A DNA stretch of 15,760 nt from an uncultured Deinococcales bacterium (GCA_964244895.1 CAXTKV010000123.1:1-15760); one strand, 5' to 3'. Numbered from the stretch's first letter, positions 1 to 15,760 are shown. Numbers and translations: made by a program. Notes: generated by a model not told the origin, from the sequence alone.

Positions 1-1879
1 CTACCGCCACGGCCCGGAGCTGAGCGCCTTTTACAGCGCGGTGGCGGCGCGGCTTTTTCCCGAATTCAGCGAACTCGGGCTGCCCGCAGAAGTCCGTCCG
101 GGGCGAGAATCCAGCGCGAATTCCGGGGCGGAACCCGGCGCACCCCGCGCGGAATTGCACGTTTTTCAGGGCGCGAGCCTCGAGATCGCGCGGCGCAACG
201 AGGCGCGGTTCCTGGCGGATCGCTTGCTGGGGTTGCACGAATCGGGCACGCCGTGGTCGGAGATGGCCGTGCTGGTGCGGTCGCGCACCGCTTTGCCCCC
301 GTTGGAAGCTGCATTGGCCGCGCTGGGCATTCCCGCGCTGGCGGTTTCCGGCCAGAAATACTACGACCGCCGCGAGATCCGCGATGCCGCCACCTTGTTG
401 CGCGCCCGCTTGACGCCCGACGCGCCGCACGTGCTGGCGGCCCTCGCGCGCTTGCCGGGGATCGACCTGGAAACGGATGTCCTCGAGAAGATGCTCGAGG
501 ACATCGAAGGCTTCACCGTCGCGCTCGAGCGATCCCGCGCCGCCGCCGCGCGGCGATTGCGCGAACTCCTGGAACGCATCCGCCGCGCCGGAGACGCGAT
601 CGATTTGTTGTCGGACGCATGGAGCTTCCTGGGGCCAGCCAGTTTCACGCGCGACCGACAGGCCGTGGCCAACCTGGACGGGTTGCTCTACCAACTGGCT
701 GCTCGGGGTTTGCGCGACCCGCGCACCGCGCTGACCTTCCTGGAACGCGCCCGACTCTCGGAGGCCGAAGGCGACGAACCCCTGGAGGCGGGCGACAGCG
801 TGCGCCTGCTGACCGTCCATGCCTCGAAGGGGCTCGAGTTCGGCGCGGTCGCGGTCTTCGACCTCGCGCGCGGCGAGCGCAACCAGACCGATGAAATCAG
901 CGTCCATCCGGACGGCGAAGTCGCGCTCAAAGGATCGGGCCACGCCGCCCGGATCGCGGCGCACTGGGACGCGCGGCGCGACGGCGAATCGAACCGATTG
1001 TTGTACGTCGCGTTGACGCGCGCCAGGGATCACTTGATTTTGACGGGCTCGATGACCAAAACGCCGCGCGCCTGGTTGGAAATTCTGCTGGCGCAACTCA
1101 GGTTGGGCAACGAAGACCACGGCATTCCTGGCATCCGCGTGACCGCGCACGCCGCCACTGAAGACGTGCTGCCCGCGCTCTTGGAAGCGCCCGCGCCCGC
1201 ACCGCGCTTCACCGTGGACGCGACCCTGGCTCGCGCCCGATTCCCCAGACCCAGACGCCGCGTGCGCGCCCCGACCCGGTCTCAGGAAACGACTGACGCT
1301 GACGGTGAACTCGATCCCGACGAAGTCCTGGACGGACTGCCCGATCTGGGCGAGGCGCTGGCCTTACCGCAAGCGGAACGCGTCATCGGCACGCTGACCC
1401 ACTACGCCATCAGCGAGGGACTGGACGCGACCAACCCGACGCACCGCAGCGTCCTGAGCGCGCAGTACGTGCTGCACCCGTTCCCCGAGCGTGAACGCGA
1501 AGCCATGCTGGAACGGTCGTGGGCACTCAAGGCTGTCCACGACAGGTTGTACCCCGATATCGGTGCACGTTTGGAGGATCGCGCGGAGTTGCCGTTCGCG
1601 TTTTCGCGGGACGGCGTAACCTGGCAGGGCGTGATCGACCGGTTGTACCGCGAACCGTCCGGGGCGTGGGTGCTGGAGGATTACAAGACCGACGACGTGC
1701 CGTTGGATGCCGTTTCCGAACGCGCCGCGACCTACCACCGCCAGCTCGCGCTGTACCGCGAGGCGATCAGGCTGGCGCGCCCGGAACTCGAGCCGGAAAT
1801 CCGGTTGACGTTCCTTCGGCACGGCATCGTGTTGAAGCTCGAGACGAGCGATCTGGATGCGGCCATGCAGAGCCTGTGA
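1..1879 (+). CDS. AddA/UvrD-family ATP-dependent helicase with C-terminal RecB-like PD-(D/E)XK nuclease (5'-truncated by window edge)
   Basis: The frame is open from base 2 (YRHGPELSAF, resembling the NYRS motif IV region). SF1 motifs AVLVRSR, LLTVHASKGLEF and ESNRLLYVALTRARDHL are present. Nuclease motifs GTLTH, QGVIDRLY, VLEDYKTD and QLALY follow. Stop TGA at 1877-1879. Confidence 0.9.
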   Translation, partial: YRHGPELSAFYSAVAARLFPEFSELGLPAEVRPGRESSANSGAEPGAPRAELHVFQGASLEIARRNEARFLADRLLGLHESGTPWSEMAVLVRSRTALPPLEAALAALGIPALAVSGQKYYDRREIRDAATLLRARLTPDAPHVLAALARLPGIDLETDVLEKMLEDIEGFTVALERSRAAAARRLRELLERIRRAGDAIDLLSDAWSFLGPASFTRDRQAVANLDGLLYQLAARGLRDPRTALTFLERARLSEAEGDEPLEAGDSVRLLTVHASKGLEFGAVAVFDLARGERNQTDEISVHPDGEVALKGSGHAARIAAHWDARRDGESNRLLYVALTRARDHLILTGSMTKTPRAWLEILLAQLRLGNEDHGIPGIRVTAHAATEDVLPALLEAPAPAPRFTVDATLARARFPRPRRRVRAPTRSQETTDADGELDPDEVLDGLPDLGEALALPQAERVIGTLTHYAISEGLDATNPTHRSVLSAQYVLHPFPEREREAMLERSWALKAVHDRLYPDIGARLEDRAELPFAFSRDGVTWQGVIDRLYREPSGAWVLEDYKTDDVPLDAVSERAATYHRQLALYREAIRLARPELEPEIRLTFLRHGIVLKLETSDLDAAMQSL

Positions 1880-1900
1880 AGCTGTGCGCGTGAACTCGAC

Positions 1901-1946
1901 AACACCGTCCAGCACGCGTTTTGAGATATGCGTGCTGGACGGTGTT
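1901..1946. repeat. REP-like inverted doublet (perfect 17-bp arms), probably also a bidirectional terminator
   Basis: AACACCGTCCAGCACGC (1901-1917) and GCGTGCTGGACGGTGTT (1930-1946) are exact reverse complements. The element lies between convergent genes and has homologous copies elsewhere in the window. Confidence 0.85.
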
Positions 1947-1979
1947 CTCTAGGGTGAATGTTTCTCGAGCTTGAGAATT

Positions 1980-2357
1980 TTAGTGGATGGTGAACGCCAC
2001 CAAGCTGTTCAGCACGCCAACAAACGCCGCCCCGTAAATTAATCCTCGAGACAAACCGGAGTTGAAGTTGCACGCGGTGCGATGACGCAATAACCAATGC
2101 AGACCCGCGTGGACGATCAGGAACGCGCTGGTGAGGGCTCGAGACCAGAATTGCAGTTCGCCTGGTGCTTGTGTGACGACGAGCAGGATCAAGAACAGCG
2201 GAACGTGAACGGCGATGAAGGCTCGAGCCGCAATGTCCTCGGGCATGTGGCGCAGCACGAACAGCAACCGCCATTCGTGCTGGCGCACCGCATCGAGTTC
2301 GTGCGTGAACAACAGCGCGAGTCCGAGATTGAACAGCAGGTTTTCGGGCGCGGTCAT
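1980..2357 (-). CDS. DUF6713-like small membrane protein
   Basis: Hydrophobic 125-aa ORF with a THELDA..EWRLL motif plus HVP and HAGLH motifs. ATG 2357 is chosen because the upstream ORF-track extension overlaps the preceding gene. Confidence 0.75.
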   Translation of the reverse strand: MTAPENLLFNLGLALLFTHELDAVRQHEWRLLFVLRHMPEDIAARAFIAVHVPLFLILLVVTQAPGELQFWSRALTSAFLIVHAGLHWLLRHRTACNFNSGLSRGLIYGAAFVGVLNSLVAFTIH

Positions 2358-2388
2358 CGCGCGACTTTCGGCAGGTTCGAGCCTCGGT

Positions 2389-2808
2389 TCAGGCCGTCCT
2401 GGATTTCCCCAGCGGTCCAAGGAAGGCTGACGTGATACCGACGAAGTAAATCCAAAGCAGGTGCGCCCCGAAGATGTACGCGACGCTGGGGTTCATGTTG
2501 GGATAGACGCTCCCGAAAAAGCCGACGGTGAACGTGTCCATCAGCATTCCGGGTGCGACGATGCAGACGGCGAAGGTCACGCCCTCGTATCGGCTGAGGT
2601 TTTGCGATGTGATGTATGCGCGAATGCACCAGGCCGTGATGGGCGTGAGAAAGAGCGCGAACGCCACCGATATCAGGGCCGCGTCAGGGGCGAAGAACCA
2701 ATGTCCGATCAGCCGAAAGCCGAGCGTTCCCAGCATCCAGACCACGAAGCCGACGCCGAACCACCTGCTGATCCTGGAACCGCCCGAATGGTGCTGTACT
2801 GCGTTCAT
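2389..2808 (-). CDS. DUF5367-like 4-TM membrane protein
   Basis: GFVVWMLGTLGFRLIGHWFF...PGMLMD...FGAHLLWIY pattern. GAGGAGG RBS precedes ATG 2808, which overlaps the TetR stop (ATGA). Confidence 0.75.
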   Translation of the reverse strand: MNAVQHHSGGSRISRWFGVGFVVWMLGTLGFRLIGHWFFAPDAALISVAFALFLTPITAWCIRAYITSQNLSRYEGVTFAVCIVAPGMLMDTFTVGFFGSVYPNMNPSVAYIFGAHLLWIYFVGITSAFLGPLGKSRTA

Positions 2809-3392
2809 GCTTGCCTCCTCGATGCTTCGAGTTCCGCCCGAAGCCAGCGCGAGAATTGCTTGAATGCCGAATCGAGGGTTTTGTCCTGATTTGATGTCAG
2901 GCGCATCAATAAAAGCCCGTAGAAGGTCGAGACGATCAGCACCGAGAGCGTTCTGGATTTCGTTCTCGGCAGGCCGTAGGTTTTGAGCGCGGCCTCGAGT
3001 TGCGCCGTCCACGGTTCGACCAGGCTCGAGAGGAAGGATTCAAACCCTTCCGGGCGCACCAGCGCCTGCCCCCAGACCTCGAACGAGAGGCGTTCGACGT
3101 GATCTACTTGACCGCTGGTCAGGATTTTCCAGAAGCGCTCGAGCCCAGCCGCGGGATCGCCATCGTTGGATTGCGCCGCCAGCAGTGCGACGTACTGGTG
3201 TTCTATGGCGGTCAGGATTTCGGCCAGCAGGGCTTCCTTGCTGCCAAAGTGGTGAATCAGCATCCGGGCGCTGGTGCCGATGGCTTCGGCCAGGGCACGC
3301 AGTGACAGGTCGGACAGGCCACGCTCGAGGACGTGAGCGACGGCTTTCTCGAGCAGCAGCGCCCGGATTTCGGGGTCTTTCGATTTGGTCAC
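2805..3392 (-). CDS. TetR/AcrR family transcriptional regulator
   Basis: N-terminal HTH (GLSDLSLRALAEAIGTSARMLIHHFGSKEALL), 195 aa, GTG start. Confidence 0.93.
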   Translation of the reverse strand: MTKSKDPEIRALLLEKAVAHVLERGLSDLSLRALAEAIGTSARMLIHHFGSKEALLAEILTAIEHQYVALLAAQSNDGDPAAGLERFWKILTSGQVDHVERLSFEVWGQALVRPEGFESFLSSLVEPWTAQLEAALKTYGLPRTKSRTLSVLIVSTFYGLLLMRLTSNQDKTLDSAFKQFSRWLRAELEASRRQA

Positions 3393-3427
3393 GTAACGAG
3401 TGTTACATGTAATACTCGTTACGTCAA
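3391..3427 (-). promoter_or_regulatory. Putative TetR autoregulatory double operator overlapping a leaderless promoter
   Basis: 34-bp palindrome ACGTAACGAGTGTTACATGTAATACTCGTTACGT (3391-3424, one mismatched pair), made of two GTAAY-N4-GTTAC units. Minus strand reads TTGACG (3427-3422), 17 bp, AACACT (3404-3399), 6 nt, GTG. Confidence 0.75.
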
Positions 3428-3462
3428 CTGCTCGAGCCTCGGATCGATACCTCGGTGATATT

Positions 3463-3606
3463 AGACCTGCTGCGAAAGGGGTCGAACGCGTCTCGAGGGC
3501 AGGGTAACCACGAGGGTTACCCCTATAAAAGCCTGTTCTGTAGGGGCAACCTTGATGGTTGCCCTCGCGTCAACGCGTTCTGGGGACTGACTTTCGCAAG
3601 AGGTTC
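3463..3606. mobile_element. MITE-like non-autonomous element with imperfect terminal inverted repeats
   Basis: Left end AGACCTGCTGCGAAAG (3463-3478); reverse complement of the right end GAACCTCTTGCGAAAG (3591-3606). Internal inverted pairs GAACGCGT/ACGCGTTC. No coding capacity. Confidence 0.55.
3502..3564. repeat. Inverted pair of GTAG-type REP palindromes (REPIN-like)
   Basis: GTAGGGGCAACCTTGATGGTTGCCC on + (3540-3564) and ATAGGGGTAACCCTCGTGGTTACCC on - (3526-3502). Each is a tetranucleotide tag followed by a GGGYAACC/GGTTRCCC hairpin. Confidence 0.75.
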
Positions 3607-3644
3607 ATTGACGATTCGCGGATGAAAGCCAGCCTGAGCGTTCA

Positions 3645-3669
3645 AAAACACCGTCTAAAACAGTGTTTT
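3645..3669. repeat. Single unit of the ACACCGT-N5-AC(G/A) repeat family
   Basis: AAAACACCGTCTAAAACAGTGTTTT is an imperfect palindrome matching the units at 1901, 6006 and 11682. Confidence 0.6.
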
Positions 3670-3695
3670 CAAGGTGACGCCAGTGGCGGTGTCGT

Positions 3696-3725
3696 TCGGG
3701 GCAAACTCGAAACGTCTCGCCCCGA
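3696..3725 (-). terminator. GC-rich hairpin directly after the stop of the 3728-4297 gene (possible terminator)
   Basis: On the minus strand TCGGGGC...GCCCCGA forms a stem starting 3 nt after TGA. There is no U-tract. Confidence 0.4.
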
Positions 3726-3727
3726 CC

Positions 3728-4297
3728 TCAGGCGCTGATTGGGGACGGATTCGCTCGCGCGATCATCGCCGCCAGCGCCGAAGCGGACAGGTGCGACAGC
3801 GCGACGATTGCCGCCAGCCCCGCCAGCCCGAAACGCGATTGCTGCGCCTGAAAAATTGCGTCCCGAATGTCGAAGGCCGCGAACAGCAAACCGAAGGCGA
3901 CGATCCCGAGCATCAAGGCTCGAGCCCGCGATTGCGACGCACCCAGTGCGAGCGCGAATGACGCGGCCATCGCCGCGAGGACGGAACCATCCGATTCGGG
4001 ATTGATGCCCAGAATTCGTTGCTCGCCCGCTTCCACGTGGGTCGCGGCTGATTGAATCGAGGCCGGTGGGTCTGCGCTCGAACCCTCGCCCAATTCGGTG
4101 CTTGTTTGCGCCGCCGTCTCCCCGCCCGAGCCCTCCGCCGCTTCGGAAGGCGTTTTGGTGGACGCCTGAAGCGCCGTCTCGGTATGCGATCCACCCGCGA
4201 CGGAGCGCTCGAGCAGAATGCCCAGCCCGAAGGTCAGCGTCGAGCCGACGATCAGCCCGACGAGAATCGGTTGGCGCGCATTTGAAAACTGGGACAT
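3728..4297 (-). CDS. Uncharacterised membrane protein (1 TM, low-complexity acidic linker, 3 TM), probable MerR target
   Basis: 189-aa ORF with hydrophobic segments, an S/T/A/E/G-rich loop, an LGINPES segment, and Asp/His in or next to TM segments. A MerR-type promoter lies 6 nt before the ATG. Confidence 0.75.
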   Translation of the reverse strand: MSQFSNARQPILVGLIVGSTLTFGLGILLERSVAGGSHTETALQASTKTPSEAAEGSGGETAAQTSTELGEGSSADPPASIQSAATHVEAGEQRILGINPESDGSVLAAMAASFALALGASQSRARALMLGIVAFGLLFAAFDIRDAIFQAQQSRFGLAGLAAIVALSHLSASALAAMIARANPSPISA

Positions 4298-4303
4298 GCG
4301 CGG

Positions 4304-4335
4304 AGTCTAGGGCCTCCCGTATACGGGAGAGTCAA
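4304..4335 (-). promoter_or_regulatory. MerR-type promoter/operator
   Basis: Minus strand reads TTGACT (4335-4330), 20-bp spacer, TAGACT (4309-4304), 6 nt, ATG. The spacer holds the perfect palindrome CTCCCGTATACGGGAG (4314-4329). Confidence 0.88.
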
Positions 4336-4337
4336 GC

Positions 4338-4841
4338 TTAGGATAACGTCAATGATTCGTCCGACACGAGATAACGGCATCCTTTAGCGCCATCGCAATC
4401 GGGTTCGGGGTTCGCATCGGCCCACCCGAGGCGCTCGACGAGTTCAATCTCGAACGCCCGGAGCGCCACCATTTTTGCGCGCACGCGCTCGAGTTGAAGC
4501 GCGATCTGGCCGCGCACCAGACCGCAATCCCGGTCGGGGGAATCACCGCAGGCGCGCAACAACGCCTCGATCTCCTCGAGCTTGAAGCCCATCGCCTGCG
4601 CCCTGCGGATCGTCGGGATGCGGTCTTTGAGGCTGGGATGGTAGTACCTGTAGCGGTTTTCGTCGCGTTGATCGGGCAGCAAGCCGATATCCGTCCAGTA
4701 GCGCAGCGTCTTGACCGTCTGCCCGGTTGCGGCGGCGAGCTGACCGATGGACCAACGCTCGAGCTTGTGAACCTCGCGTACCGGGCTCGAGCACGGCGGT
4801 AACGATGAGAACAGCTTCTCGACGGAGGTGATCCGATTCAT
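4338..4841 (-). CDS. MerR-family heavy-metal-responsive regulator (CadR/PbrR/ZntR-like)
   Basis: SIGQLAAATGQTVKTLRYW...GLL...ENRYRYY...IRRAQAMGFKLEEI. A Cys precedes the dimerisation helix (DRDCGLV) and a C-terminal C-x5-C loop follows. ATG 4841 has a G-rich RBS; the exact start is uncertain. Confidence 0.9.
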   Translation of the reverse strand: MNRITSVEKLFSSLPPCSSPVREVHKLERWSIGQLAAATGQTVKTLRYWTDIGLLPDQRDENRYRYYHPSLKDRIPTIRRAQAMGFKLEEIEALLRACGDSPDRDCGLVRGQIALQLERVRAKMVALRAFEIELVERLGWADANPEPDCDGAKGCRYLVSDESLTLS

Positions 4842-4960
4842 GAAACCCCCTGTGTTCGACGGTTTTTGATGTACGGTTCGTCGGTCGACACCTTCAAGAT
4901 ACGCGAGCGAACCCCATCGGGCTCGATGCTCGAGATTGAACCTCGGGCTCAAAATCGAAC

Positions 4961-5004
4961 AGACCGTTCGGGACGCGAAGGTTGAATCGCGTCCCGGACG
5001 GCCT
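4961..5004. repeat. REP-like inverted doublet, just downstream of the PIG-L gene
   Basis: AGACCGTTCGGGACGCGA / TCGCGTCCCGGACGGCCT, 16 of 18 Watson-Crick pairs. Same 44-bp span as the cores at 1902-1945 and 6007-6050. Confidence 0.75.
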
Positions 5005-5017
5005 TCTCACGGGAGCT

Positions 5018-5851
5018 TCAATCCTCGAGCTGCGAGAACCCATCCAACCCGTCATAAAACCCGCGCAACGGCCAGTGCGGGATCGGGCCGCGCGTGCCAC
5101 CCAGAGAAAAACTCTCCCAGCTTGAACGCTCGCGCATTTTTTCTTGCCACTCGGGCGGCATCTGACCCATCCTCGAATTTGGTCCGGTCTGCGATCCGTG
5201 AAAACGGATCGCGGCCAGCTTCTTTTCCAGTTGCGCTTCGACGTTGCGCTTGACGGCGATGGTCGGGGCGGACACGCCGTACACTTCCGGCGTCATGCCC
5301 GGCGTCATCGGGCCGCCCGGCATGTCGATCCAGGTGCGCATGGTTTCCACGGGCATGGCCGTGTAGAACAACCGCTCCGGTGCGCCATCCAGGTGTCCGC
5401 TCGAGAACCAGGCCGCCAAGGTCGCCTGGTGAATCACGATGTGATCCGGGTGGTCGTAACCGCCGTGCGGATCGAAGGTCAGCACGACCTGCGGCTCGAC
5501 CCGCTCGATCACGTCGCGCACTTTCGCCTCGATCTCGCGCGGGTCGGCGTTGATGCTGGCCAAGGGGTCGTCCTTGCGCAAGCGCTCCAGGCGGCCCGAA
5601 TCGCGGTAGCCCAGAAAAATCGGGGCTTCGATGCCCAGGGCCTTACACGCATCACGCAGTTCCTGCTCGCGGTGCTTGCCCAGATCCTCGATGGTCAGGT
5701 TCGGATCGGTGATCTTACCCGCCTCGCCGCGCGTGCTGCAGGCCAGCGTGACCTTGACACCCCGTTCCGCGTAGCGCGCGAGGGTGCCGCCCGAACTGAA
5801 CGCTTCGTCGTCGGGGTGCGCAAAAACCGCCAGCAGTGAAGGAGTGGTCAT
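5018..5851 (-). CDS. PIG-L/LmbE family deacetylase (MshB/BshB/Mca-like)
   Basis: AHPDDE, TRGEAG, REQEL and DPHGGYDHPDH zinc-deacetylase motifs. TATGCT lies 7 nt before ATG 5851, favouring that start over 5863. Confidence 0.92.
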   Translation of the reverse strand: MTTPSLLAVFAHPDDEAFSSGGTLARYAERGVKVTLACSTRGEAGKITDPNLTIEDLGKHREQELRDACKALGIEAPIFLGYRDSGRLERLRKDDPLASINADPREIEAKVRDVIERVEPQVVLTFDPHGGYDHPDHIVIHQATLAAWFSSGHLDGAPERLFYTAMPVETMRTWIDMPGGPMTPGMTPEVYGVSAPTIAVKRNVEAQLEKKLAAIRFHGSQTGPNSRMGQMPPEWQEKMRERSSWESFSLGGTRGPIPHWPLRGFYDGLDGFSQLED

Positions 5852-6005
5852 TGCTCGGAGCATACGCCCGCTGCGTCACCGCATCCGTCAGGTTCGAGAC
5901 GTTGTTGTCTGGAATCCGAGGGGATTCGCTCGAGCCGCGAGCCTGCAGCTCGAGCGCGAACTCGGCCCGCTGAGGGTTCGTTGGACAATTGGAGACTACG
6001 GTAAA

Positions 6006-6051
6006 AACACTGTTCAGTACGCGCGCTGAGTATCGTGTGCCGGACAGTGTT
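6006..6051. repeat. REP-like inverted doublet between divergent genes
   Basis: AACACTGTTCAGTACGCG-N10-CGTGTGCCGGACAGTGTT aligns end to end (46 bp) with 1901-1946 and shows a compensatory C:G to T:A change. Confidence 0.75.
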
Positions 6052-6174
6052 GACCAACGCAAAGCACCGAGTGAAGCTCCGTCGAGGCCGCGCTGATTCG
6101 AGGAGCGAAGGCTCGAGGTCGATTCCATCGGCGATTTTAGAGAGCGTAAACAATGAAGATATAATTTATGTCTC

Positions 6175-7299
6175 ATGGGTCAGATCGTCTCCGTTCAGGT
6201 GCTCCGGCTGTTGGCGGCGCTGGCAGTCGTCTTCCTTCACGTCTCGCACGACGCGCAAACCATCGCAGAGCGCACGGGCTCGGGCTTCGTTCCAACCTGG
6301 GGACCGTTCGATGTCGGGGTGGATCTGTTTTTCGTGATCTCAGGTTTCGTGATGGTCGTCTCCTCGAGCCGTCTGTTCGGGCAGGACGGCGCAGCCAGAC
6401 TGTTTTTCGCTCGGCGTTTCGCGCGGATCGTGCCGATCTACTGGGCCACGACCAGCCTCTACGTGATTCTGGCGCTGTTCGTGCCCGCTTTGTTGAACGC
6501 CAACCGCATCGGGGGGCTCGAGATCATCGAGTCGTACCTGTTCGTGCCGTTCGCGCAGGCGGACGGTTCGATCGTTCCGGTCTTCAAGCAAGGCTGGACG
6601 CTGAATTACGAGATGCTGTTTTACCTGGTTTTCGCGCTGATGCTCGGGCGTTTTCGGAGCGCCAGACGGGTCGTGGTGGGCATCACGGTGGTGTTCGCGG
6701 TGCTGGCCGTGGTCGGCTGGTTCGCGCGCTTCTCGCCGGGACCGTTTCAATTCTGGACCAGCACCATGCCGCTCGAATTCGTGGCGGGATGCTGGATCGG
6801 GTTGTCGTTCGTGGGTGGCCTGCGCTTGCCGTGGGGCATCGGCGCATTGAGCGCGGCGGCTGGCATCGGGCTGGCGGTGCTACCGATGCTCTTCGGCCTG
6901 CACTACGAGCCGACCAACACCTTTCTTCGCGCCTTCGTCTGGGGTGTGCCCGCCGCGCTGATCCTGCTCGGTGGGGCGCTCGGCTTCCCTCAAAAGCAGA
7001 GCCGTTCGCGCCTGACGCGCGCCCTGGTCGGGCTCGGGGATGCGTCCTACGCGCTTTACATTTGCCATCCGTTCATCGTCAGGTTGTTTCGGGAAGTCTG
7101 GATTCGGCTCGGGCTGGCGTCCAGGTTCGACGAATGGGTGTACATCCTGAACGCCACGGTCGTGTCCGTCCTGGCCGCGATGCTGATTCACCGTTTTTTC
7201 GAGCGACCCCTGACGCGCTGGGTTCAGCGGCGCCTCGGTGTGGAGCGTTCGCCATCCTCGACCCCGATCAGCGCGGTACGCTCGATCCCACCGATCTAG
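6175..7299 (+). CDS. Acyltransferase family 3 (OafA/ExoZ-like) membrane O-acyltransferase
   Basis: SVQVLRLLAALAVVFLH, GVDLFFVISGFVM, RRFARIVPIYW, GWTLNYEMLFY, LGDASYALYICH and FERP motifs; multi-TM. TATAAT at 6160-6165. Confidence 0.93.
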   Translation: MGQIVSVQVLRLLAALAVVFLHVSHDAQTIAERTGSGFVPTWGPFDVGVDLFFVISGFVMVVSSSRLFGQDGAARLFFARRFARIVPIYWATTSLYVILALFVPALLNANRIGGLEIIESYLFVPFAQADGSIVPVFKQGWTLNYEMLFYLVFALMLGRFRSARRVVVGITVVFAVLAVVGWFARFSPGPFQFWTSTMPLEFVAGCWIGLSFVGGLRLPWGIGALSAAAGIGLAVLPMLFGLHYEPTNTFLRAFVWGVPAALILLGGALGFPQKQSRSRLTRALVGLGDASYALYICHPFIVRLFREVWIRLGLASRFDEWVYILNATVVSVLAAMLIHRFFERPLTRWVQRRLGVERSPSSTPISAVRSIPPI

Positions 7300-7313
7300 A
7301 CGGACTGCTCTAA

Positions 7314-7333
7314 AGCGCGTCCAGAACGGTGTT
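7314..7333. repeat. Single unit of the ACACCGT-N5-ACG repeat family (reverse orientation)
   Basis: AGCGCGTCCAGAACGGTGTT, located between convergent genes. Confidence 0.6.
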
Positions 7334-7372
7334 GATGAAGCGCGAGCCGCGGCGAGTTCGACCCGCGACCGA

Positions 7373-8137
7373 TCAGACCTCGAGATCGAACACCTGGAAC
7401 GCTCGCTCGAGCCCCTGCAGCGGGTCGCGCGTGGGAATCCATTCGTGACCGACGAAGCTCTGTGAACCCCACTGAGAGATGGCTTTGGCGATCGCCGGGT
7501 AGTTCAGTTCCTGGGCTGCGTCCGGTTCGTGCCTGCCGGGGTTTCCGGCCACGTGGTAGTGCGCGAACATCGCGCCCCACTGGTCGATGGTGCGCACCAC
7601 GTCGCCCTCCATGATCTGCATGTGGTACGCGTCGTAAAGAAGGCGCAAACTGGACGATTCGACCATCTCGCAGACAGACAACCCCCATTCCGTGCGATCC
7701 GCCATGTAGCCTGGGTGATCGAGCCTGGAATTCAGCATCTCGAGCGCGATCGTCACGCCTGCGTCCCTGGCGTGACCGACGATGCGGCTCAGGCCTTCGG
7801 CGGTGATGCGCGCGCCCGTGTCGTCGCGCACGCCGTAGCGGTTACCCGAAAAAACGATCAGCACGGGAATCTGTTGGGCTTCAGCCGTTTCCAGGCTGGT
7901 CAGGAATTCTTTTTCCAGATCGTCGTGGTTCGCTCTGTCGTTCCAGCCGCGCTCGAGCGAAGATTGACCTCGGTGCGTGACGATCTTCAAACCCGCAGAT
8001 TTCATCAACCCGTGCAGTTCTTCCGGCACGAGTTCCACGCCCTCGAAACCGATCCGAGCGATCCCTTTCGCGAAGGCTTCGGGGTCGAGCGCTTTCTCGA
8101 AGCACCACCAGCACACGCTCTGTCGGAGTTTTGGCAT
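7373..8137 (-). CDS. Hydroxypyruvate isomerase-like / xylose-isomerase-like TIM-barrel protein
   Basis: QSVCWWCF, GFEGVEL, ALEMLNSRLDHPGY, LLYDAYHMQIMEGD, HYHVAGNPGRHEP, ELNY and VGHEW motifs. Start is ATG 8137 or GTG 8155. Confidence 0.88.
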   Translation of the reverse strand: MPKLRQSVCWWCFEKALDPEAFAKGIARIGFEGVELVPEELHGLMKSAGLKIVTHRGQSSLERGWNDRANHDDLEKEFLTSLETAEAQQIPVLIVFSGNRYGVRDDTGARITAEGLSRIVGHARDAGVTIALEMLNSRLDHPGYMADRTEWGLSVCEMVESSSLRLLYDAYHMQIMEGDVVRTIDQWGAMFAHYHVAGNPGRHEPDAAQELNYPAIAKAISQWGSQSFVGHEWIPTRDPLQGLERAFQVFDLEV

Positions 8138-8151
8138 TGGAGATTCAGGAT

Positions 8152-8170
8152 ACACCGTTCCAGACGGTCT
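8152..8170. repeat. Single unit of the ACACCGT-N5-ACG repeat family in a divergent promoter region
   Basis: ACACCGT-TCCAG-ACGGTCT. Confidence 0.6.
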
Positions 8171-8247
8171 TTTACATCTTCAGGTGAACCGTCTGATGCG
8201 CGCGTTCTTTTTGACTCGCGCGATTCGCGGTTCACCCGTACAATCCG

Positions 8248-11200
8248 ATGGTGTTGACGGCGCTTGAACTGGACGAAATCTTTGAGGCTGGAACGCTCGA
8301 GCGGGCGCGCAAGCTGCGGCAATCGCAGAAAATCCAGAAGATCACGGTCTCGAAAGACGGTTCGGTCATCAGCGGCGTCGTGCGCGGCTCGAACGGTGAG
8401 CGTTACGACGTGGACGTGTTCCTCGAGTGGAGCGATCGCGCCCTGGAAGATGTCAACGTCATCTGCGATTGCCCGGTCGAGTTCAACTGCAAGCACGGCG
8501 CGGCCCTGCTCCTGGAGGCCGACGAACGCGGGTTGCTGCCGCGACCCAAACCCCTCGAGACGAGCGCCGATCTTCGCGCGTTGATCGAAACCTTCGCGCC
8601 GCCTACGATCCCGCAGAAATCATCGAGCGTCCTCGAGACCTTCCAGAATCCGCCCGCCGCGCCCCGGCTCGAGCAGCAACTGAACGCGTGGTTGACAACT
8701 TCCTCGCGCATCGCGGAATCTGACGATGCGAAAACCCAGACGCAGACGCTGGCCTTCACGCTCTCCTCGACGCCGGAACGCAAGATCAGTTTCAAGGTCT
8801 GGAGCGGCAAGGAGCGCAGGGACGGCAGTTTTTCGGAACTCAAAGCCTACAACCTGCCCAGCCACCTGGATGCCCTGCCGCAGTACGCGCTGCGCGACAG
8901 GCCGCTCCTGCGTTCGATGATGAGCTTGCGCGTGTCGTTGATCGATTTTGCGACCTGCGTGATCGGCGATTTCCCGCCCGCGCCGGAGTTCTTGAAGCTC
9001 CTGCTCGAGACCGGGCGCTGCTGGTGGGACGCGCCGAACGGCCAGCCGCTGCGCATGGCCACGCCCAGATCCGGCGAACTCGAGTGGCTGATTCAGCCGA
9101 ACGGTACGCAAGTCCCGAGCTTCCGCGTCTCACCCGCCTGCGATCACGTGCTGGCGCTTTCCCCGCCGTGGTTCGTGGACGTTTCGCAGGCTGCGATGGG
9201 CCTGATCGAGACGCCGTTCAAGCCCTCCTTGGCGCAGCATTTCGCGGCCTGCCCACCGGTCGCACCGGGTGAACTGAGCGCCTTTCGGGCCGCGTTCACG
9301 GCCCGATTCCCGGACTTGCCCGCGCCCGAAGCCATCCAGGAACGCGTCGTGGATCGGGCCTGTCGACCGATGCTGCGCCTGATGTCGCGCACCATCAAAT
9401 CGAACTGGAACGTCCCGGTGGAACTGGACTTCGCGGTGCTCGAGTTCGGCTACGGCGACGCGCGTTTTTCGCCGTCCGACGCGCGCAACACGCCGCGCGA
9501 GGTGGTCAGCTTCAGGGACGGCGTGCTGGAACGCATCCTGCGCGATCCGGTGGCGGAACTGAACGCGGAACGATTGCTCTTGGCGCTCAAGTTGCAACCG
9601 ATGCTGACCAGCCACCTGCCCGGCGTCGGGCGGGCGTACACGCAACCCGACGCCAGATCCGACGCGCTCCAGACGGCCTGGTTGCGCTTCATGAACAAGA
9701 CCCGTCCCGCCCTCGAGGAACTCGGCTGGCGCATCGAATCCGACCCGAGCTGGCGCTACAACACCGTCGAGGCCGCCGAATGGTACGGCGAACTCGAGGA
9801 TGAACGGGATGCCGTGGGAACCGTCACCGACGCACCGCTCGAGGATGCGGGGCACGGCGGCTGGTTCGGTCTGGAACTCGGCGTGATCGTGGACGGTCAA
9901 CGGTTGAACCTGCTGCCGCTTTTATCCGACCTGGTGGCGCGCCTTCCCAAAGATTTCACGCCCGAGCACCTGCGCCAGATGCCCGACGACGCCCGCGTCT
10001 ACCCGCGCTTGCCGGACGGTCGCTTGCTGGCCTTGCCCATTGAACGCGTCCGCGCCCTGCTGGGCGTGCTGCTCGAGCTGTACGCCGAACGGCCCAGGGG
10101 CAAGTTGCGACTCTCGATCTTCGACGCGGCCCGCTTGCTGGAACTTCAGGATGCCCTCCAGCTGCGCTGGCACGGTGGCGAACGGTTACTTGCCATGGCC
10201 GCACGCCTGCGCGATTTTCAGCGCATCGCGCCGCTCGAGCCACCCGTCGGCCTGAACGCCGAACTGCGCCCGTACCAGATCGAAGGCTTTTCCTGGCTGC
10301 AATTTCTGCGCGAGCACGACCTGGCGGGCGTGCTCGCCGACGACATGGGCTTGGGCAAGACCGTCCAGGCGCTGGCGCACGTGCTGCACGAAAAAGCCTC
10401 CGGTCGATTGGATCGCCCCGCGCTGGTCGTGATGCCGACCAGCCTGGTCACCAACTGGAAGCTCGAGGCTGCGCGCTTCGCGCCTGAACTCAAATTAACC
10501 GTGCTGCACGGTGCAAAACGCGATCATTCCAGAATTCTCGGATCGGACGTGGTGCTGACCACCTACCCCTTGTTGCTGCGCGATTTCGACAAGCTCAAAC
10601 AGCACCAGTTCCACCTGATCGTGCTGGACGAAGCGCAGTACATCAAGAACGCCCGCAGCAGCACCGCCCAGAGCGCCAGCGCCCTGAGCGCCCGCCACCG
10701 GATCTGCCTGACCGGAACGCCGCTGGAAAACCACCTGGGCGAACTCTGGAGCATCTTTAACTTTTTGATGCCCGGCTTCCTGGGCGACGAGCGCGCCTTC
10801 CGCGAGGCGTACCGCACGCCGATCGAAAAGAATGGCGACACCGCCCGCCGCGCGCAACTCGCGAAACGCATCAGGCCGTTCCTGCTGCGCCGCGCCAAAC
10901 GCGATGTCGCCCGTGAATTGCCGCCCAAAACCGAGATCATCGTGCCGTTGGAACTCGAGTCCAGCCAGCGCGACCTCTACGAGACCATCCGCGTGGCCGT
11001 CAGCCAGCGCATCCGCGAGGAAGTCGAGAAAAAAGGTCTGGCCCGCTCGCAGATCGTGGTGCTGGACGCGCTTTTGAAACTCCGTCAGGCCTGTTGCGAC
11101 CCGCGCCTGGTCAAATTAGAGGGCGCGAAACCCGTCAGGCACAACACCAAACTCGAGTGGTTCACCGAAAACATTCCCGCCATGATCGAAGAAGGCCGCA

Positions 11201-11658
11201 AGGTGCTGGTCTTCAGCGCCTTCGCAACGCTGCTGGGCAACCTGGAAGCCGCGCTGGAGGGCATGAACGTTCCCTACGCCAAACTGACCGGGCAGACCCG
11301 CGACCGCGCCCAGCAAATCGAGAAGTTTCAGTCGGGGGACGCAGGCGTGTTCCTGATCAGCCTGAAAGCCGGTGGTGTCGGGTTGAACCTGACCGCCGCC
11401 GACACCGTGGTTCACTACGACCCGTGGTGGAACCCCGCCGCCGAGAACCAGGCCACCGACCGCGCCCACCGCATCGGGCAGACCAAACCCGTGTTCGTGT
11501 ACAAGTTGATCGTGCAGGGCAGCCTGGAGGAAAAAATTCTTGAATTGCAATCGCGCAAGGCGGAACTGGCGCGCGGCATTCTGGAAGGTGGCTTGACCAG
11601 CGCGGTCGCGCTGACGCAGGCCGACCTGAGCAATTTGCTCGCGCCGCTCTCGAAGTGA
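8248..11658 (+). CDS. SWIM zinc-finger SNF2/SWI2 family helicase
   Basis: N-terminal CDCPVEFNCKH (SWIM). LRPYQ, LADDMGLGKT, LDEAQYIKN, LTGTPLEN, SLKAGGVGLNLT and DPWWNPAAENQATDRAHRIGQ motifs. TACAAT at 8239-8244 suggests a leaderless GTG start at 8251. Confidence 0.95.
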   Translation: MVLTALELDEIFEAGTLERARKLRQSQKIQKITVSKDGSVISGVVRGSNGERYDVDVFLEWSDRALEDVNVICDCPVEFNCKHGAALLLEADERGLLPRPKPLETSADLRALIETFAPPTIPQKSSSVLETFQNPPAAPRLEQQLNAWLTTSSRIAESDDAKTQTQTLAFTLSSTPERKISFKVWSGKERRDGSFSELKAYNLPSHLDALPQYALRDRPLLRSMMSLRVSLIDFATCVIGDFPPAPEFLKLLLETGRCWWDAPNGQPLRMATPRSGELEWLIQPNGTQVPSFRVSPACDHVLALSPPWFVDVSQAAMGLIETPFKPSLAQHFAACPPVAPGELSAFRAAFTARFPDLPAPEAIQERVVDRACRPMLRLMSRTIKSNWNVPVELDFAVLEFGYGDARFSPSDARNTPREVVSFRDGVLERILRDPVAELNAERLLLALKLQPMLTSHLPGVGRAYTQPDARSDALQTAWLRFMNKTRPALEELGWRIESDPSWRYNTVEAAEWYGELEDERDAVGTVTDAPLEDAGHGGWFGLELGVIVDGQRLNLLPLLSDLVARLPKDFTPEHLRQMPDDARVYPRLPDGRLLALPIERVRALLGVLLELYAERPRGKLRLSIFDAARLLELQDALQLRWHGGERLLAMAARLRDFQRIAPLEPPVGLNAELRPYQIEGFSWLQFLREHDLAGVLADDMGLGKTVQALAHVLHEKASGRLDRPALVVMPTSLVTNWKLEAARFAPELKLTVLHGAKRDHSRILGSDVVLTTYPLLLRDFDKLKQHQFHLIVLDEAQYIKNARSSTAQSASALSARHRICLTGTPLENHLGELWSIFNFLMPGFLGDERAFREAYRTPIEKNGDTARRAQLAKRIRPFLLRRAKRDVARELPPKTEIIVPLELESSQRDLYETIRVAVSQRIREEVEKKGLARSQIVVLDALLKLRQACCDPRLVKLEGAKPVRHNTKLEWFTENIPAMIEEGRKVLVFSAFATLLGNLEAALEGMNVPYAKLTGQTRDRAQQIEKFQSGDAGVFLISLKAGGVGLNLTAADTVVHYDPWWNPAAENQATDRAHRIGQTKPVFVYKLIVQGSLEEKILELQSRKAELARGILEGGLTSAVALTQADLSNLLAPLSK

Positions 11659-11681
11659 TCTCGCCCAGGGTCATGGAGCGA

Positions 11682-11740
11682 GAACACCGTCCAGGACGCG
11701 GTTTTTGGTTCTCTAGGGAATGCCGTCTGGGACGGTGTTC
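11682..11740. repeat. REP-like inverted doublet between convergent genes
   Basis: GAACACCGTCCAGGACG / CGTCTGGGACGGTGTTC. The spacer contains GTTCTCTAGGG, which also occurs at the end of the 1901-1946 copy (1944-1954). Confidence 0.8.
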
Positions 11741-11778
11741 CCGAATCGAGCACCTCGAGAAAGCGCCCTCGGGAACCC

Positions 11779-12021
11779 TCAACGCTCGAGGAACAAAATC
11801 AGCGCCATGACCGCCGCGATGCCCACCACGGCTGCGACCGCGCCCACCCACTGCTCGCGCCAGACGAACACCACACCGATCAACATGAGCGCCACCATCA
11901 CCCATTGAAGAACGCTCCGCAGGGTTCCGTTGAGGCTGAAGGCGTAAGCGCTGACGTACAGCGACACGAGTCCGATCAACACCAGCAACACGCTGATGAC
12001 GACTCTCAAGATGATGGTCAT
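11779..12021 (-). CDS. Small hypothetical 3-TM membrane protein
   Basis: 80-aa strongly hydrophobic ORF filling the gap after glcF. TATAGT lies 8 nt upstream of the ATG. Confidence 0.65.
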   Translation of the reverse strand: MTIILRVVISVLLVLIGLVSLYVSAYAFSLNGTLRSVLQWVMVALMLIGVVFVWREQWVGAVAAVVGIAAVMALILFLER

Positions 12022-12049
12022 TGCTCTGGACTATAACGCAATTGAGGGC

Positions 12050-13330
<1,281 letters not shown>

Positions 13331-13370
13331 GGTGTTCTCCTTTGGAAGCCGCAGGCCGTAAGCCTCGAGC

Positions 13371-14447
13371 TTAGAAGCTGGGGAATTTGCCATCCGGGTC
13401 GAGCGCCCGCTTGACTCGAGCGAGCATCACAGCATCCGAGCCGACGCCCAGGATCGGTTTTTCGGTGTCGCCCATGAACACCAAGGCTGAAAGTTCCAGC
13501 TCGTGCAGCACGGCTTCCAGTTCGTGCAGTTCCGCGTTCCAGCCGACCCACGCGACCTGCCCCGCCGAGCCGTAGCGCCTGACCGCCGCGCCCTCGAGCC
13601 TGGATTCCAGCGCCGGAATTCGCTTCGGCGTGACCGGAATCTTCAGCAGGTACCGTGCAGAACGGTGTTCCTGGAATTCGCGGAGTCCGTCCCAGACGGT
13701 CTTTTCTGCATTACCCGTCAGCCTCACGGCCTTTGCGCCGACGAAACCCTCGAGCCGATCCAATCTTGCATCCAACGCTTCCGGCACGCCGCCCAGACGC
13801 ACCAGCACCGTGCTGGACGGAATCAATTCCAACCCTTCCAGATCAAAGTTCGATCTCGAGAGGCGCACCACGGCATCCAACGCACGTTGGAAGCTCGGAA
13901 GCTCGAACCGCGCCGTCTGGAACGCCTTCGGCTTCGGGAAGACCTTGAACGAAAGCTCCGTCATGACGCCCAAACGCCCCAGGCTACCGACCATCAATTT
14001 GGGGAAATCGAAACCCGCCGCGTTCTTCACGACCTTGCCGCCGCCCCGAACGATGTTCCCGCGACCGTCAATGAACTGCACGCCCAGGATGAAATCCCGC
14101 ACGCCGCCGTACCGCACGCGCCCCGGCCCGGACAGACCAGATGCGACCGTGCCACCCAGCGTCGCGCCCGCATCCACCAGCACTGGATCGAACGGCAGGT
14201 ATTGCCCGTTCTTCTCGAGCAGATCGCGCACCTCGGAGACTTTGGTTCCGGCCAGCGCGGTGAAGGTGTACTCGCCGGGATCGTACTCGAGGACGCCGGA
14301 GAGGGCGGTCATATCGAGTGGGACAATGTTGTCGGAAGATCTCGAGAGGGCGGTTTTTGATTTCCCTGAATGAATCGAAACAGCGGTGCTTGCGAGAACA
14401 TGGGCGCTAATGGATTGAATTGCTGCACCAGTCGTCATTGCGCTCAT
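13371..14447 (-). CDS. glcE: Glycolate oxidase FAD-binding subunit
   Basis: [41 protein letters not shown] and KRALDP motifs; lies between glcD and glcF. Start is ATG 14447 (ATGA overlap) or 14438. Confidence 0.9.
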
Positions 14448-14971
14448 TTCGCTAAAAACTCATACTTCAGATATTCATGAAGTGTATCAGCGAAGTGAAT
14501 TGCGTCATGATCCATGATTGAAAGGATTTCGCAATTTTTCGTTTCGTTGGTACATACGATAAATCGGTGCGCGTATATAGGTAATAGTCTATCACTGTCG
14601 TCAAGGCCAAATTCCGAGCAAATTTCAGCCATATATGGAACAGTTCTTTCTATCATCTCATGAACCGTATCAGTGTCTCGAGGAAATGAATACACTCCCA
14701 CTCCATATCTATGAGGATAACCTGACGATCCATAAATGTTCTTTGTCGGCAAATCAGTTCCATTCATAAAGCTTAGCATTAGCCGAAAATCATCTGGCAA
14801 GCGAACCTGAAACTCTTCTTCAAGTGTGATTATTTCATCATCTGAGAGCCCGGGATTCCATTTTGTTCCAGGCTGAAACTGGAAACCATATGTAACTGGA
14901 TTTAACTCCGTGGTTGCCCATTTTGTTTCGGTTCCGCGTTTGAATTGATCCAACCACTCGCGCGTAAGCAT
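14444..14971 (-). CDS. SMI1/KNR4 (SUKH) family protein, low GC
   Basis: GLSDDEIITLEEEFQVRLPDDFRLML...NG signature, LLPIYAHRF and FADTLHEYL C-terminus. AAGGA RBS precedes ATG 14971. Sampled lines are 38-45% GC. Confidence 0.8.
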   Translation of the reverse strand: MLTREWLDQFKRGTETKWATTELNPVTYGFQFQPGTKWNPGLSDDEIITLEEEFQVRLPDDFRLMLSFMNGTDLPTKNIYGSSGYPHRYGVGVYSFPRDTDTVHEMIERTVPYMAEICSEFGLDDSDRLLPIYAHRFIVCTNETKNCEILSIMDHDAIHFADTLHEYLKYEFLAK

Positions 14972-15063
14972 CTCAAAATCCTTATTTATTCCTCGAGATA
15001 ATACCCGATTGCTCAAATCTAAGGTGGTGGCCTATCTACGAATGATGAGCCCAGAAATTTGCG

Positions 15064-15267
15064 TCAGAGACAACCTCGGGATTGCATCGAGCATTTGGGC
15101 TGACCCACTACCAAATCTAAATCATCTTTGAGTACTTCCCAATCTTCCAGTAAAGTGGCAGGTTCAAACGGTTGCTCGTAACGGACTACAGTCCCTTTGA
15201 GCGGATGTTGCATCTTCTTCTCGTTGGCGTCAATTTCTGGTGCATTTTTCGATGATTGATCGTTCAT
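15064..15267 (-). CDS. Small protein resembling the C-terminal part of a type II (VapB/Phd-linked) antitoxin, possibly degenerate
   Basis: HPLKGTVVRYEQPFEP...EDWEVLK resembles the PLxGxVxxYxxPFEP..DWE tail recalled from antitoxins preceding PIN toxins. GGGAG RBS lies 8 nt before ATG 15267. No alignment was run. Confidence 0.5.
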   Translation of the reverse strand: MNDQSSKNAPEIDANEKKMQHPLKGTVVRYEQPFEPATLLEDWEVLKDDLDLVVGQPKCSMQSRGCL

Positions 15268-15272
15268 TTCTA

Positions 15273-15760
15273 TCACTCCCTCGAGATTGCGCCGGATTGC
15301 TCGAGCGGGTGCGGGCCGTGGTGTTTCAAACTCGGGGCTTCACCGTCGGGGAACATCTTGCCGGGGTTGGACAACTCGAACGGGTCGAGCGCGAGACGAA
15401 GATTTCGCATGGCATCCATGTCCACCGCGTTGAACATCTCCGGAAGGTACTCGCGTTTTTCCACGCCGACGCCGTGTTCTCCGGTGATGCTGCCGCCCAG
15501 TCGAACGCACAATTTCAGAATTCCGCCCGCCAGGGTTTCGGCTCTCTCGAGCGCACCGGGTTCGCGCCCGTCGAACAGGATCAAAGGGTGCAGGTTGCCG
15601 TCGCCCGCGTGGAAGACGTTGGCGACGCGAATCCCTGCTTCTTTGGACATCCGTTCTATTTCTCCGAGCGCCAATCCCAGCTTGCCGCGCGGTACGACAC
15701 CGTCCTGCACGATGTAATCGGGACTCAGGCGTCCCACGGCTGAAAAAGCGCTCTTGCGGC
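15273..15760 (-). CDS. glcD: Glycolate oxidase subunit GlcD (C-terminal part, truncated by window edge)
   Basis: [54 protein letters not shown] and NPGKMFP motifs. Confidence 0.93.

Follow-up and report, generated by a model that had tools for sequence, protein, structure and literature searches.

The highly iterated palindrome HIP1 (GCGATCGC) and the alternate HIPs GGCGCC, GCsGC and rCCGGy of cyanobacteria are short palindromes that occur in all reading frames and in spacers and are conserved between species (PMC4390886, PMC5861425, PMC13756078). HIP1 has so far been treated as cyanobacterial and methylase-linked, and for three decades has had no settled explanation (PMC13756078). Here we describe a word with the same behaviour, CTCGAG, in a 15,760-nucleotide stretch of DNA (the window) from an uncultured Deinococcales bacterium (GCA_964244895.1, CAXTKV010000123.1:1-15760). 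A HIP1-like palindrome in a non-cyanobacterial lineage had been proposed when this stretch was read on its own (the sequence-only reading), and the proposal is supported: the signal is genome-wide, falls in all frames and is conserved, and the lineage is Deinococcales. Our observations cover the excess itself, its confinement to the full six bases, the way it is kept from species to species and alters protein sequence, its gradation over the order, and the addAB genes of the source genome. The sequence-only reading had offered either a methylation-linked process or a recombination or protein-binding signal, and the data favour the second option. Our leading explanation, put forward tentatively, is that CTCGAG may be a palindromic Chi (resection-stop) site of Deinococcota AddAB, spread by repair-biased conversion.

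The window holds exactly 73 copies of CTCGAG (4.6 per kb), as a hand count had put it. None of 200 dinucleotide shuffles reached this number (mean 7.33 ± 2.7, maximum 14), so the count is far above chance as claimed, while the chance expectation of ~5 given with it was slightly low. Set against the longest open reading frames (ORFs), 52 sites are in-frame Leu-Glu, seven read xCT-CGA-G, seven read xxC-TCG-AG and seven lie outside ORFs, with site 2994 additionally read in the xCT-CGA-G frame of an overlapping ORF. The placement of sites in all three frames and in intergenic DNA was thus correct, as were the arginine codons noted at sites (CGA at 2045, 2138, 2222 and 13415; AGA at 13855 and 14341; AGG at 15280) and the codon counts for the SNF2-family gene (Table 1), where no Leu-Glu pair is CTC-GAA and 10 of the 14 pairs not written CTC-GAG use GAA. 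The lack of CTC-GAA is a small-sample effect, because the genome as a whole shows no depletion of this pair (1,344 cases). Seven of the nine sites listed as intergenic are so; site 13364 lies in frame within a GlcF-like ORF (12050-13393), and site 4929 would be intergenic only if the MerR gene started at 4841.

The genome that holds the window (G000; 5.12 Mb, 62.7% GC, 91% complete) has Deinococcales metagenome-assembled genomes (MAGs) as its closest named relatives. CTCGAG is its commonest hexamer, with 21,883 copies or 4.27 per kb (about one per 230 bases), and ranks first both by count and by z score at Markov orders 0, 1 and 2, where the observed/expected ratios (O/E) are 12.7, 9.1 and 9.8. 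The next palindrome with more than 500 copies has an order-2 O/E of 2.05, and most other GC-rich palindromic hexamers are avoided. The excess is not confined to the window: all 190 contigs of at least 10 kb hold 2.4-6.8 copies per kb, site spacing is near random (coefficient of variation 0.96) and no period appeared in pair counts up to 5 kb on these short contigs, a range below the 10-90 kb periodicity of HIPs. In a relative assembled as a single contig (G006), 20 tiles hold 77-120 copies per 20 kb. The maximal-order (order-4) Markov ratio, which is just 1.25 (z = 47, both-strand counts), speaks against so large an excess; it is this low because both 5-mers are largely made up of the hexamer itself.

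Codon bias does not explain the enrichment. Genes were called by self-trained or GC-bias heuristics rather than a standard caller, and in 3,619 of the 4,365 calls within-gene synonymous shuffles gave ~3,270 copies vs 13,947 observed (4.26x). Resolved by frame, observed and shuffled counts were 10,232/2,807, 711/52 and 3,004/413, the two out-of-frame ratios being ~13x and ~7x. Leu-Glu is the most over-used dipeptide of the genome (O/E 2.13), and CGA accounts for 44% of arginine codons between xCT and G vs 4.6% before G elsewhere. Density peaks at the lowest constraint, from 2.7 per kb in the most codon-typical genes to 6.6-8.2 per kb in intergenic DNA (8.15 in short intergenic DNA), and intergenic DNA free of REP-like (repetitive extragenic palindrome-like) repeats holds 991 copies vs 82-119 expected. 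An explanation from the sub-words TCGA or CTCG/CGAG fails as well, since CTCGAG makes up 21,883 of about 54,040 TCGA words and the next flank pair 3,744. The signal has an all-or-none six-base form, with a mild flank bias and no extended consensus; one-off variants have O/E of 0.42-1.46 in genes and 0.72-2.21 in REP-free intergenic DNA, and when polarity with replication was examined over 165 contigs, five of them were uncorrelated with a weak proxy for skew. The most enriched one-off, CCCGAG/CTCGGG (2.2-2.5x intergenic, 1.46x coding), is also the product of the least suppressed losses in the alignments described below (9 vs 17 expected), a pattern hinting at partial recognition.

To place the signal in its lineage, 121 genomes of the order were compared in five families, f1 to f5, of which f1 is the uncultured Deinococcales family of G000 (19 genomes, 57-94% complete). 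CTCGAG reaches 4.3-6.8 per kb in all 19 f1 genomes, 0.29-2.4 in f2, 0.01-0.27 in f3, 0.7-2.9 in f4 and 0.6-3.1 in f5. Of the group-level traits, the lack of AddAB suggests that f3 is a Deinococcus-like family (cf. PMC9751324), and TaqI_C methylases in 16/16 genomes of genus g9 suggest that this genus is Thermus-like. In overlapping samples of f3 coding DNA, 0 sites were found vs 9 expected and 1 vs 11, while the remaining TCGA words were close to their expected numbers. Named records around addB (73 of 78 loci, five short ones left out; none labelled Deinococcus) gave codon-shuffle ratios of 6.2 in f1-like MAGs, 3.5 in named Meiothermus species, 2.5 in Calidithermus and 2.2 (range 1.2-9.1) in Trueperaceae, so the enrichment in other Deinococcota that the sequence-only reading had mentioned is real. 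Meiothermus is enriched about 3-5x overall, and f1 density is two to three times that of Meiothermus. Thermus avoids other TCGA words (0.10, 67/660) yet largely spares CTCGAG (0.66, 229/349), and CTCGAG ranks first among hexamers in a 40-kb portion of the Allomeiothermus silvanus plasmid pMESIL01 as well as in Meiothermus phage MMP17, which does not avoid it. These densities and ratios show an order-wide, graded signal rather than a quirk of one family. Leu-Glu pairs in AddA number 17 vs 7.6 in G000, are doubled across f1 orthologues, stand at about 1:1 in four g9 genomes and reach 16 vs 9.1 in one other f5 genome, and GlcF homologues elsewhere (n=77) are at 1:1 (251 vs 247). For other lineages, a triple-site scan covering 1/64 of genome contigs gave 120 loci, of which 80 were analysed; the 25 densest of these had order-2 O/E of at most 3.9, and the 15 densest of 80 of 126 viral loci at most 6.5, small samples by which absence elsewhere is not shown.

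CTCGAG is retained between species. Alignments of 60 kb of G003 with five congeners (genus g4, 86-88% identical) and of 20 kb of G008 with six (g5) were searched for changes unique to one genome, and these were scored against the rate at which the same base change occurs neutrally. Synonymous losses numbered 66 vs 270 expected (43/166 in the six g4 genomes, 23/104 in the seven g5 genomes), compared with 134 vs 153 for 17 control hexamers, which establishes the conservation in relatives that had been put forward as a check. Non-synonymous losses were also few (12 vs 37), and the one-off neighbours CTCGAA, CTCGAT and CTCGAC were unprotected (20 losses vs 16.7). Suppression extended to transversions (8/71) and transitions (58/200), and synonymous gains, in small, parsimony-based counts, numbered 21 vs 5.2, with five transversion gains where fewer than 0.2 were expected. 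This pattern over both mutation types speaks against a repair bias specific to T:G and suggests that fixation is biased in favour of the whole hexamer. A loss ratio of ~0.24 and a gain ratio of ~4 fit a scaled strength near 2.5-3, which by calculation from these ratios gives a 10-15-fold equilibrium excess.

Neighbouring sites repel each other. Within genes, two Leu-Glu coded as CTCGAG lie 9-120 bp apart less often than in permutations (0.79-0.95), a deficit that ten control dicodons do not show, and in G000 the use of CTCGAG for Leu-Glu near an out-of-frame site rises from 0.87 at 7-30 bp to 1.05 beyond 500 bp, a far-minus-near difference of 0.082 vs at most 0.044 in 25 control words. Close sites therefore appear partly redundant, mainly at short range.

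AddA, whose C-terminal part is encoded at the start of the window (Table 1), is with AddB the candidate reader of CTCGAG. addB and an addA N-terminus are found at the end of another contig of the same genome (G000:C128, 11522-15275). In G006 the orthologue of the window AddA adjoins an 843-aa gene whose profile and predicted fold match Bacillus subtilis AddB. A single-sequence PDB search of AddB gave nothing; its profile matches B. subtilis AddB (3u44_B, E 5e-10), and the top five fold matches of a moderate model (pLDDT 66.6, pTM 0.49), which served for fold assignment only, are all AddAB chain B. Two Chi helices of AddB have been described (PMC4614115). At the positions aligned to them, 35 Deinococcales AddBs carry Gln at Q42 (33/35), Arg at M43 (33/35), Gln at S69 (35/35) and Gln or Asn at R70 (32/35), vs a mean top-residue share of 0.61, and the f1 proteins have their own version of these residues (T-N-L-Q-N). 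The genome thus encodes both AddA and AddB with a Chi-scanning domain.

Within the order, CTCGAG partly tracks these genes. AddA was found in 18/18 f1, 26/27 f2, 22/23 f4 and 25/26 f5 genomes and AddB in 17/18, 26/27, 21/23 and 25/26, respectively; the 26 f3 genomes gave three weak AddA hits and four weak partial AddB hits. G120, a reduced f2 member of the order (2.1 Mb, GC 0.48, 96% complete), has no match to AddA, AddB or the competence protein ComEC, and CTCGAG is unenriched in it (40/34). G103 (GC 0.41) has AddA and AddB, with CTCGAG at 23/3.

Deinococcota combine polyploidy with frequent breaks. If CTCGAG is a Chi site, AddAB would enter at a double-strand break and degrade DNA until AddB met CTCGAG, where it would hand the 3' tail to RecA. 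A palindrome can be read from either side, and strand polarity is therefore not needed. The template for repair of the broken copy would be a second copy of the chromosome or DNA that the cell had taken up; an allele bearing the site would stop resection and survive, an allele lacking it would be resected and replaced, and closely spaced sites would be partly redundant. Such conversion would favour the site whatever base change had made or broken it, and would need no methylase. We infer every step from AddAB to the site. We favour a resection-stop role because it does without a methylase, acts alike on every mutation type, accounts for neighbour redundancy and explains two losses. A fuller history, in which a palindromic Chi was ancestral to the order, was lost with AddAB in the Deinococcus-like family and was driven by conversion until the f1 proteome was rewritten, is possible, if slightly more tentative still.

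Several observations weigh against recognition by AddAB. The link rests on two contrasts, f3 and G120, which may reflect other shared gene losses, and may be confounded because G120 also has no ComEC match. In G098 (99% complete) neither AddA nor AddB has a match, yet the signal is kept (48/61 vs 3/157 for other TCGA words) at 1.1 CTCGAG per kb, the highest of its genus, in which 15/16 congeners keep the AddAB genes; since the signal is kept without the genes, G098 fits only if its AddAB loss was very recent. Conversely, G023 is not enriched (22/25) although it carries both genes, and several high-GC Trueperaceae with AddAB show no clear excess. Among 23 AddB loci labelled Trueperaceae, nine have a CTCGAG-to-other-TCGA ratio of 1.4 or less. 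The pocket position equivalent to T44 is variable across the order. Thermus phage phiFa has 31 sites at an O/E of 0.98, with no pile-up in its terminal repeat. In pooled relatives spacing has no long-range gradient (0.71 at 7-30 bp, 0.95 at 31-60 bp, flat beyond), a pattern that a protein footprint would explain no less well, and the dependence of loss on neighbour distance, 12% at 40 bp or less and 2% beyond 200 bp, is a trend in the expected direction with p 0.06-0.10 within genes. The Chi sites listed in bioRxiv 2021.07.08.451572 are all non-palindromic; Chi frequencies in Escherichia coli and Staphylococcus aureus are explained there by codon use and computational Chi calls are judged inadequate, and because host Chi frequency follows codon use, a 10-fold excess would be unusual for Chi. 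CTCGAG is a candidate Chi site, and AddAB its putative reader.

Strict palindromes of six bases typically reflect recognition by homodimers. A dimeric protein that binds or marks the site (a nucleoid protein, a restriction-fold protein or another methylase) with a footprint of ~30 bp fits this form and, doubtful as it is, seems nearly as likely as a Chi role. Sites would then be kept by weak selection or local strand-directed repair. Exclusion between sites is strongest within 30 bp in G000 and its relatives, and G098 and G023 would be accommodated, but no candidate protein was found, 59 methylase queries recovering only five G000 genes. Changes at four-fold sites up to 10 bp from the motif are somewhat fewer than expected (164 vs 212), but this lies inside the scatter of 13 control dipeptides (0.77-1.44) and flank protection was not counted.

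It is unlikely that CTCGAG instead marks DNA for competence, as an uptake or post-uptake preference signal that molecular drive has spread, the model put forward for HIP1. G000 and 17 of 18 f1 relatives have ComEC, drive would be independent of mutation type, and HIP1 has been tied to the competence machinery (PMC13756078). ComEC is also present in G098 and in 26/26 f3 genomes, so competence fits G098, which has both gene and signal, better than AddAB does, and fits f3, which has the gene and no excess, worse; G120 has neither. The extended consensus and graded one-off variants of an uptake sequence are not seen, the one-off variants being unprotected, and at one site per 150-230 bp an extra site would add little to a kilobase fragment.

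Creation or retention of the site by an orphan methylase of the XhoI/PaeR7I type, through the methyl-directed repair envisaged by Elhai, is improbable. A matching methylase is reported for every HIP cyanobacterial genome (PMC4390886), and a CTCGAG orphan methylase for Nocardia (PMC4752239). Within the order, the methylation link proposed from the sequence found no support. XhoI-family nucleases (PF04555) occur in 0/19 f1 genomes and 6/121 genomes overall, and the site is enriched, not avoided as a restriction target would be. No close PaeR7I/XhoI-type methylase was found in the 19 f1 genomes, the most enriched of all (best 27% identity); these genomes being 57-94% complete, absence is not proven. 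Among the four methylase families searched, no orthogroup is common to G000 and its five best f1 relatives. The five DNA-methylase-like genes found in G000 with the 59 queries, which covered four classes, are a beta-class gene in a low-GC island, a D12-class gene, a type I HsdM, a gene in a BREX-like cluster and one in an ICE-like (integrative and conjugative element-like) region, and none is assigned to CTCGAG. Other candidates were rejected: TaqI_C methylases occur in 6/18 relatives and not in G000, C5 methylases are lacking in G000 and present as unrelated copies in 5/5 relatives, N4/N6 methylases are lacking in G006, and one D12 orthogroup is shared by 3/5 relatives and absent from G000. 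A model built on a TCGA core fails because half-flanked TCGA words are unprotected. At G031:C1:1093865-1096226 (L130, L125, L126) a methylase adjoins an XhoI-family nuclease in two overlapping pieces (frameshifted), and from this adjacency to a broken XhoI-family gene we take it as PaeR7I-like. Full-length relatives (43-60% identity) occur in eight other f2, f4 and f5 genomes, several of them enriched, and in none of f1, but the enriched G113, G025 and G059 have no close match. In five f4 genomes (L120-L124) the XhoI-family nuclease is paired with a beta-class (SPPY) methylase, not a gamma-class one.

Functionless writing of CTCGAG by a site-autonomous, Vsr-like T:G repair bias is more improbable again. 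The peak of density at the lowest constraint agrees with such a bias, as do the low-GC restriction islands of relatives, which already hold 2-6 sites per kb, but transversion losses are suppressed at least as much as transitions, synonymous transversion gains exceed expectation and neighbouring sites repel. Codon or dipeptide usage, or REP-like repeats, could appeal to the 73% of coding copies that are in-frame Leu-Glu, to the 787 of 4,165 intergenic copies inside repeated 14-mers and to haloarchaea-labelled loci with 3-5 CTCGAG per kb at order-2 O/E of 2.3-3.9, but this explanation is refuted by the out-of-frame ratios, the REP-free intergenic count and the orthologues, in which Leu-Glu itself is doubled in f1 and ~1:1 in g9 AddA and in GlcF outside.

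The REP-like repeats form a separate intergenic family (core AACACCGTCC(A/T)G(C/G)ACG, ~1,457 core copies in G000), often in inverted pairs and often adjoining CTCGAG, and are not the cause of its excess. Their 8-mer occurs ~570 times per Mb in G000 vs 40-90 in the sampled G003, G006 and G008. The word AACACCGT, considered as a second signal (22x), proved to be the REP-like core, mostly outside called genes and rare in the three sampled relatives.

The features of the window are collected in Table 1. An AT-richer insert (14444-15272) between the GlcD-like and GlcE-like ORFs carries an SMI1/KNR4-family gene.

Table 1. Features of the 15,760-nucleotide window, with positions counted from its first base
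Feature	Position	Strand	Remarks
CTCGAG palindrome, 73 copies	179..15551	.	All three frames and intergenic; from positions, shuffles and frame analysis
AddA, C-terminal 625 aa (UvrD-C and PD-(D/E)XK nuclease)	2..1879	+	Truncated by contig start
SNF2-family helicase gene	8248..11658	+	CTC-GAG codes 16 of 30 Leu-Glu pairs
Intergenic CTCGAG	1964..1969; further sites 3431, 3492, 5929, 5949, 6112, 11754	.	
Three out-of-frame CTCGAG in the DUF6713 gene	2045..2227	-	xCT-CGA-Gxx, Arg codon CGA
Two out-of-frame CTCGAG in the FAD-binding (GlcE-like) ORF	13855..14346	-	CTC-TCG-AGA, Arg codon AGA
REP-like inverted pair	1901..1946	.	Separate intergenic repeat family
Second REP-like inverted pair	11683..11739	.	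CTCGAG follows at 11754

Elsewhere in G000, a restriction-modification island of GC 0.42 (L003, G000:C114:10538-12888) has no CTCGAG over 2,350 bp, is among the longest CTCGAG-free gaps of the genome and is probably a recent arrival. Islands of this kind in relatives already hold 2-6 sites per kb, so the density of sites might tell when a gene was acquired. The motif written backwards, GAGCTC, is nearly missing from f1, with 568 copies in G000, 0-25 in 16 of the 18 genomes G001-G018 and 114 and 161 in the other two; G006 has next to no copies of many further palindromes. In the L642, L644 and L645 samples (f4 genus g8) and in L667-L669, GTAGAC/GTCTAC ranks at or close to the top of all hexamers. 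Among viruses, IMG/VR contigs L492 and L531 hold 6-7 CTCGAG per kb (order-2 O/E 3.1 and 5.7). Phage phiFa has one CTCGAG 7 bases from its left genome end (L700:7-12) and Thermus phage phiKo has one CTCGAG; in the first 30 of 86 kb of Thermus phage P23-45 the left repeat has none and four of five sites lie just inside the repeat.

CTCGAG shares with the cyanobacterial HIPs its over-representation as an outlier, its presence in all frames and in non-coding DNA, and its conservation. Its O/E is of the same order as that of the hexamer HIP GGCGCC (15.5, Calothrix D253). It differs in word and phylum, and no cognate methyltransferase was found, whereas Elhai reports a methylase for each HIP genome (PMC4390886). 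HIP1 itself is not the signal, CGATCG being under-represented in G000 (order-2 O/E 0.32). CTCGAG densities of 4,300-6,800 per Mb compare with 300-2,700 for the HIP1 octamer, and we do not claim CTCGAG to be denser, because counts of a hexamer and of an octamer cannot be compared directly. In Nocardia the same word forms a local cluster near dnaA that is tied to an orphan methylase (PMC4752239), whereas coverage here is even, as the tiles of G006 show, and no methylase was found. We found no paper on a CTCGAG excess in Deinococcota in a search of largely open-access literature.

The uptake sequences of Neisseria and Pasteurellaceae have an extended consensus in which one-off variants count. Like CTCGAG they are genome-wide words that reshape dipeptide use in hosts with a competence gene (ComEC), but CTCGAG is a six-base palindrome with no extended consensus and is absent from the ComEC-positive f3. 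The Chi sites of AddAB and RecBCD (AGCGG in B. subtilis, GCTGGTGG in E. coli) are, like CTCGAG, short, all-or-none words built on frequent dicodons (PMC4614115, bioRxiv 2021.07.08.451572, bioRxiv 2020.08.13.249359), and as in those systems the host encodes AddAB with aligned Chi helices and a host phage carries the word. Unlike known Chi, CTCGAG is palindromic, unpolarised and far above codon expectation. For Thermus AddAB, the text on Chi in PMC9751324 and PMC11143384 names no sequence; CTCGAG, if it is read by AddAB, would supply one for Thermus and Meiothermus, would reduce a long-standing question to a single enzyme assay and would suggest a way for highly iterated palindromes to arise with no methylase, for which HIP1 could serve as a test case. 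Cultured Meiothermus, Calidithermus and Allomeiothermus carry the signal and it is detectable in Thermus, so its mechanism is open to bench tests that do not require f1 to be grown. Deinococcota provide a second phylum with HIP behaviour, with another word, graded strength, apparent losses and no cognate methylase found.

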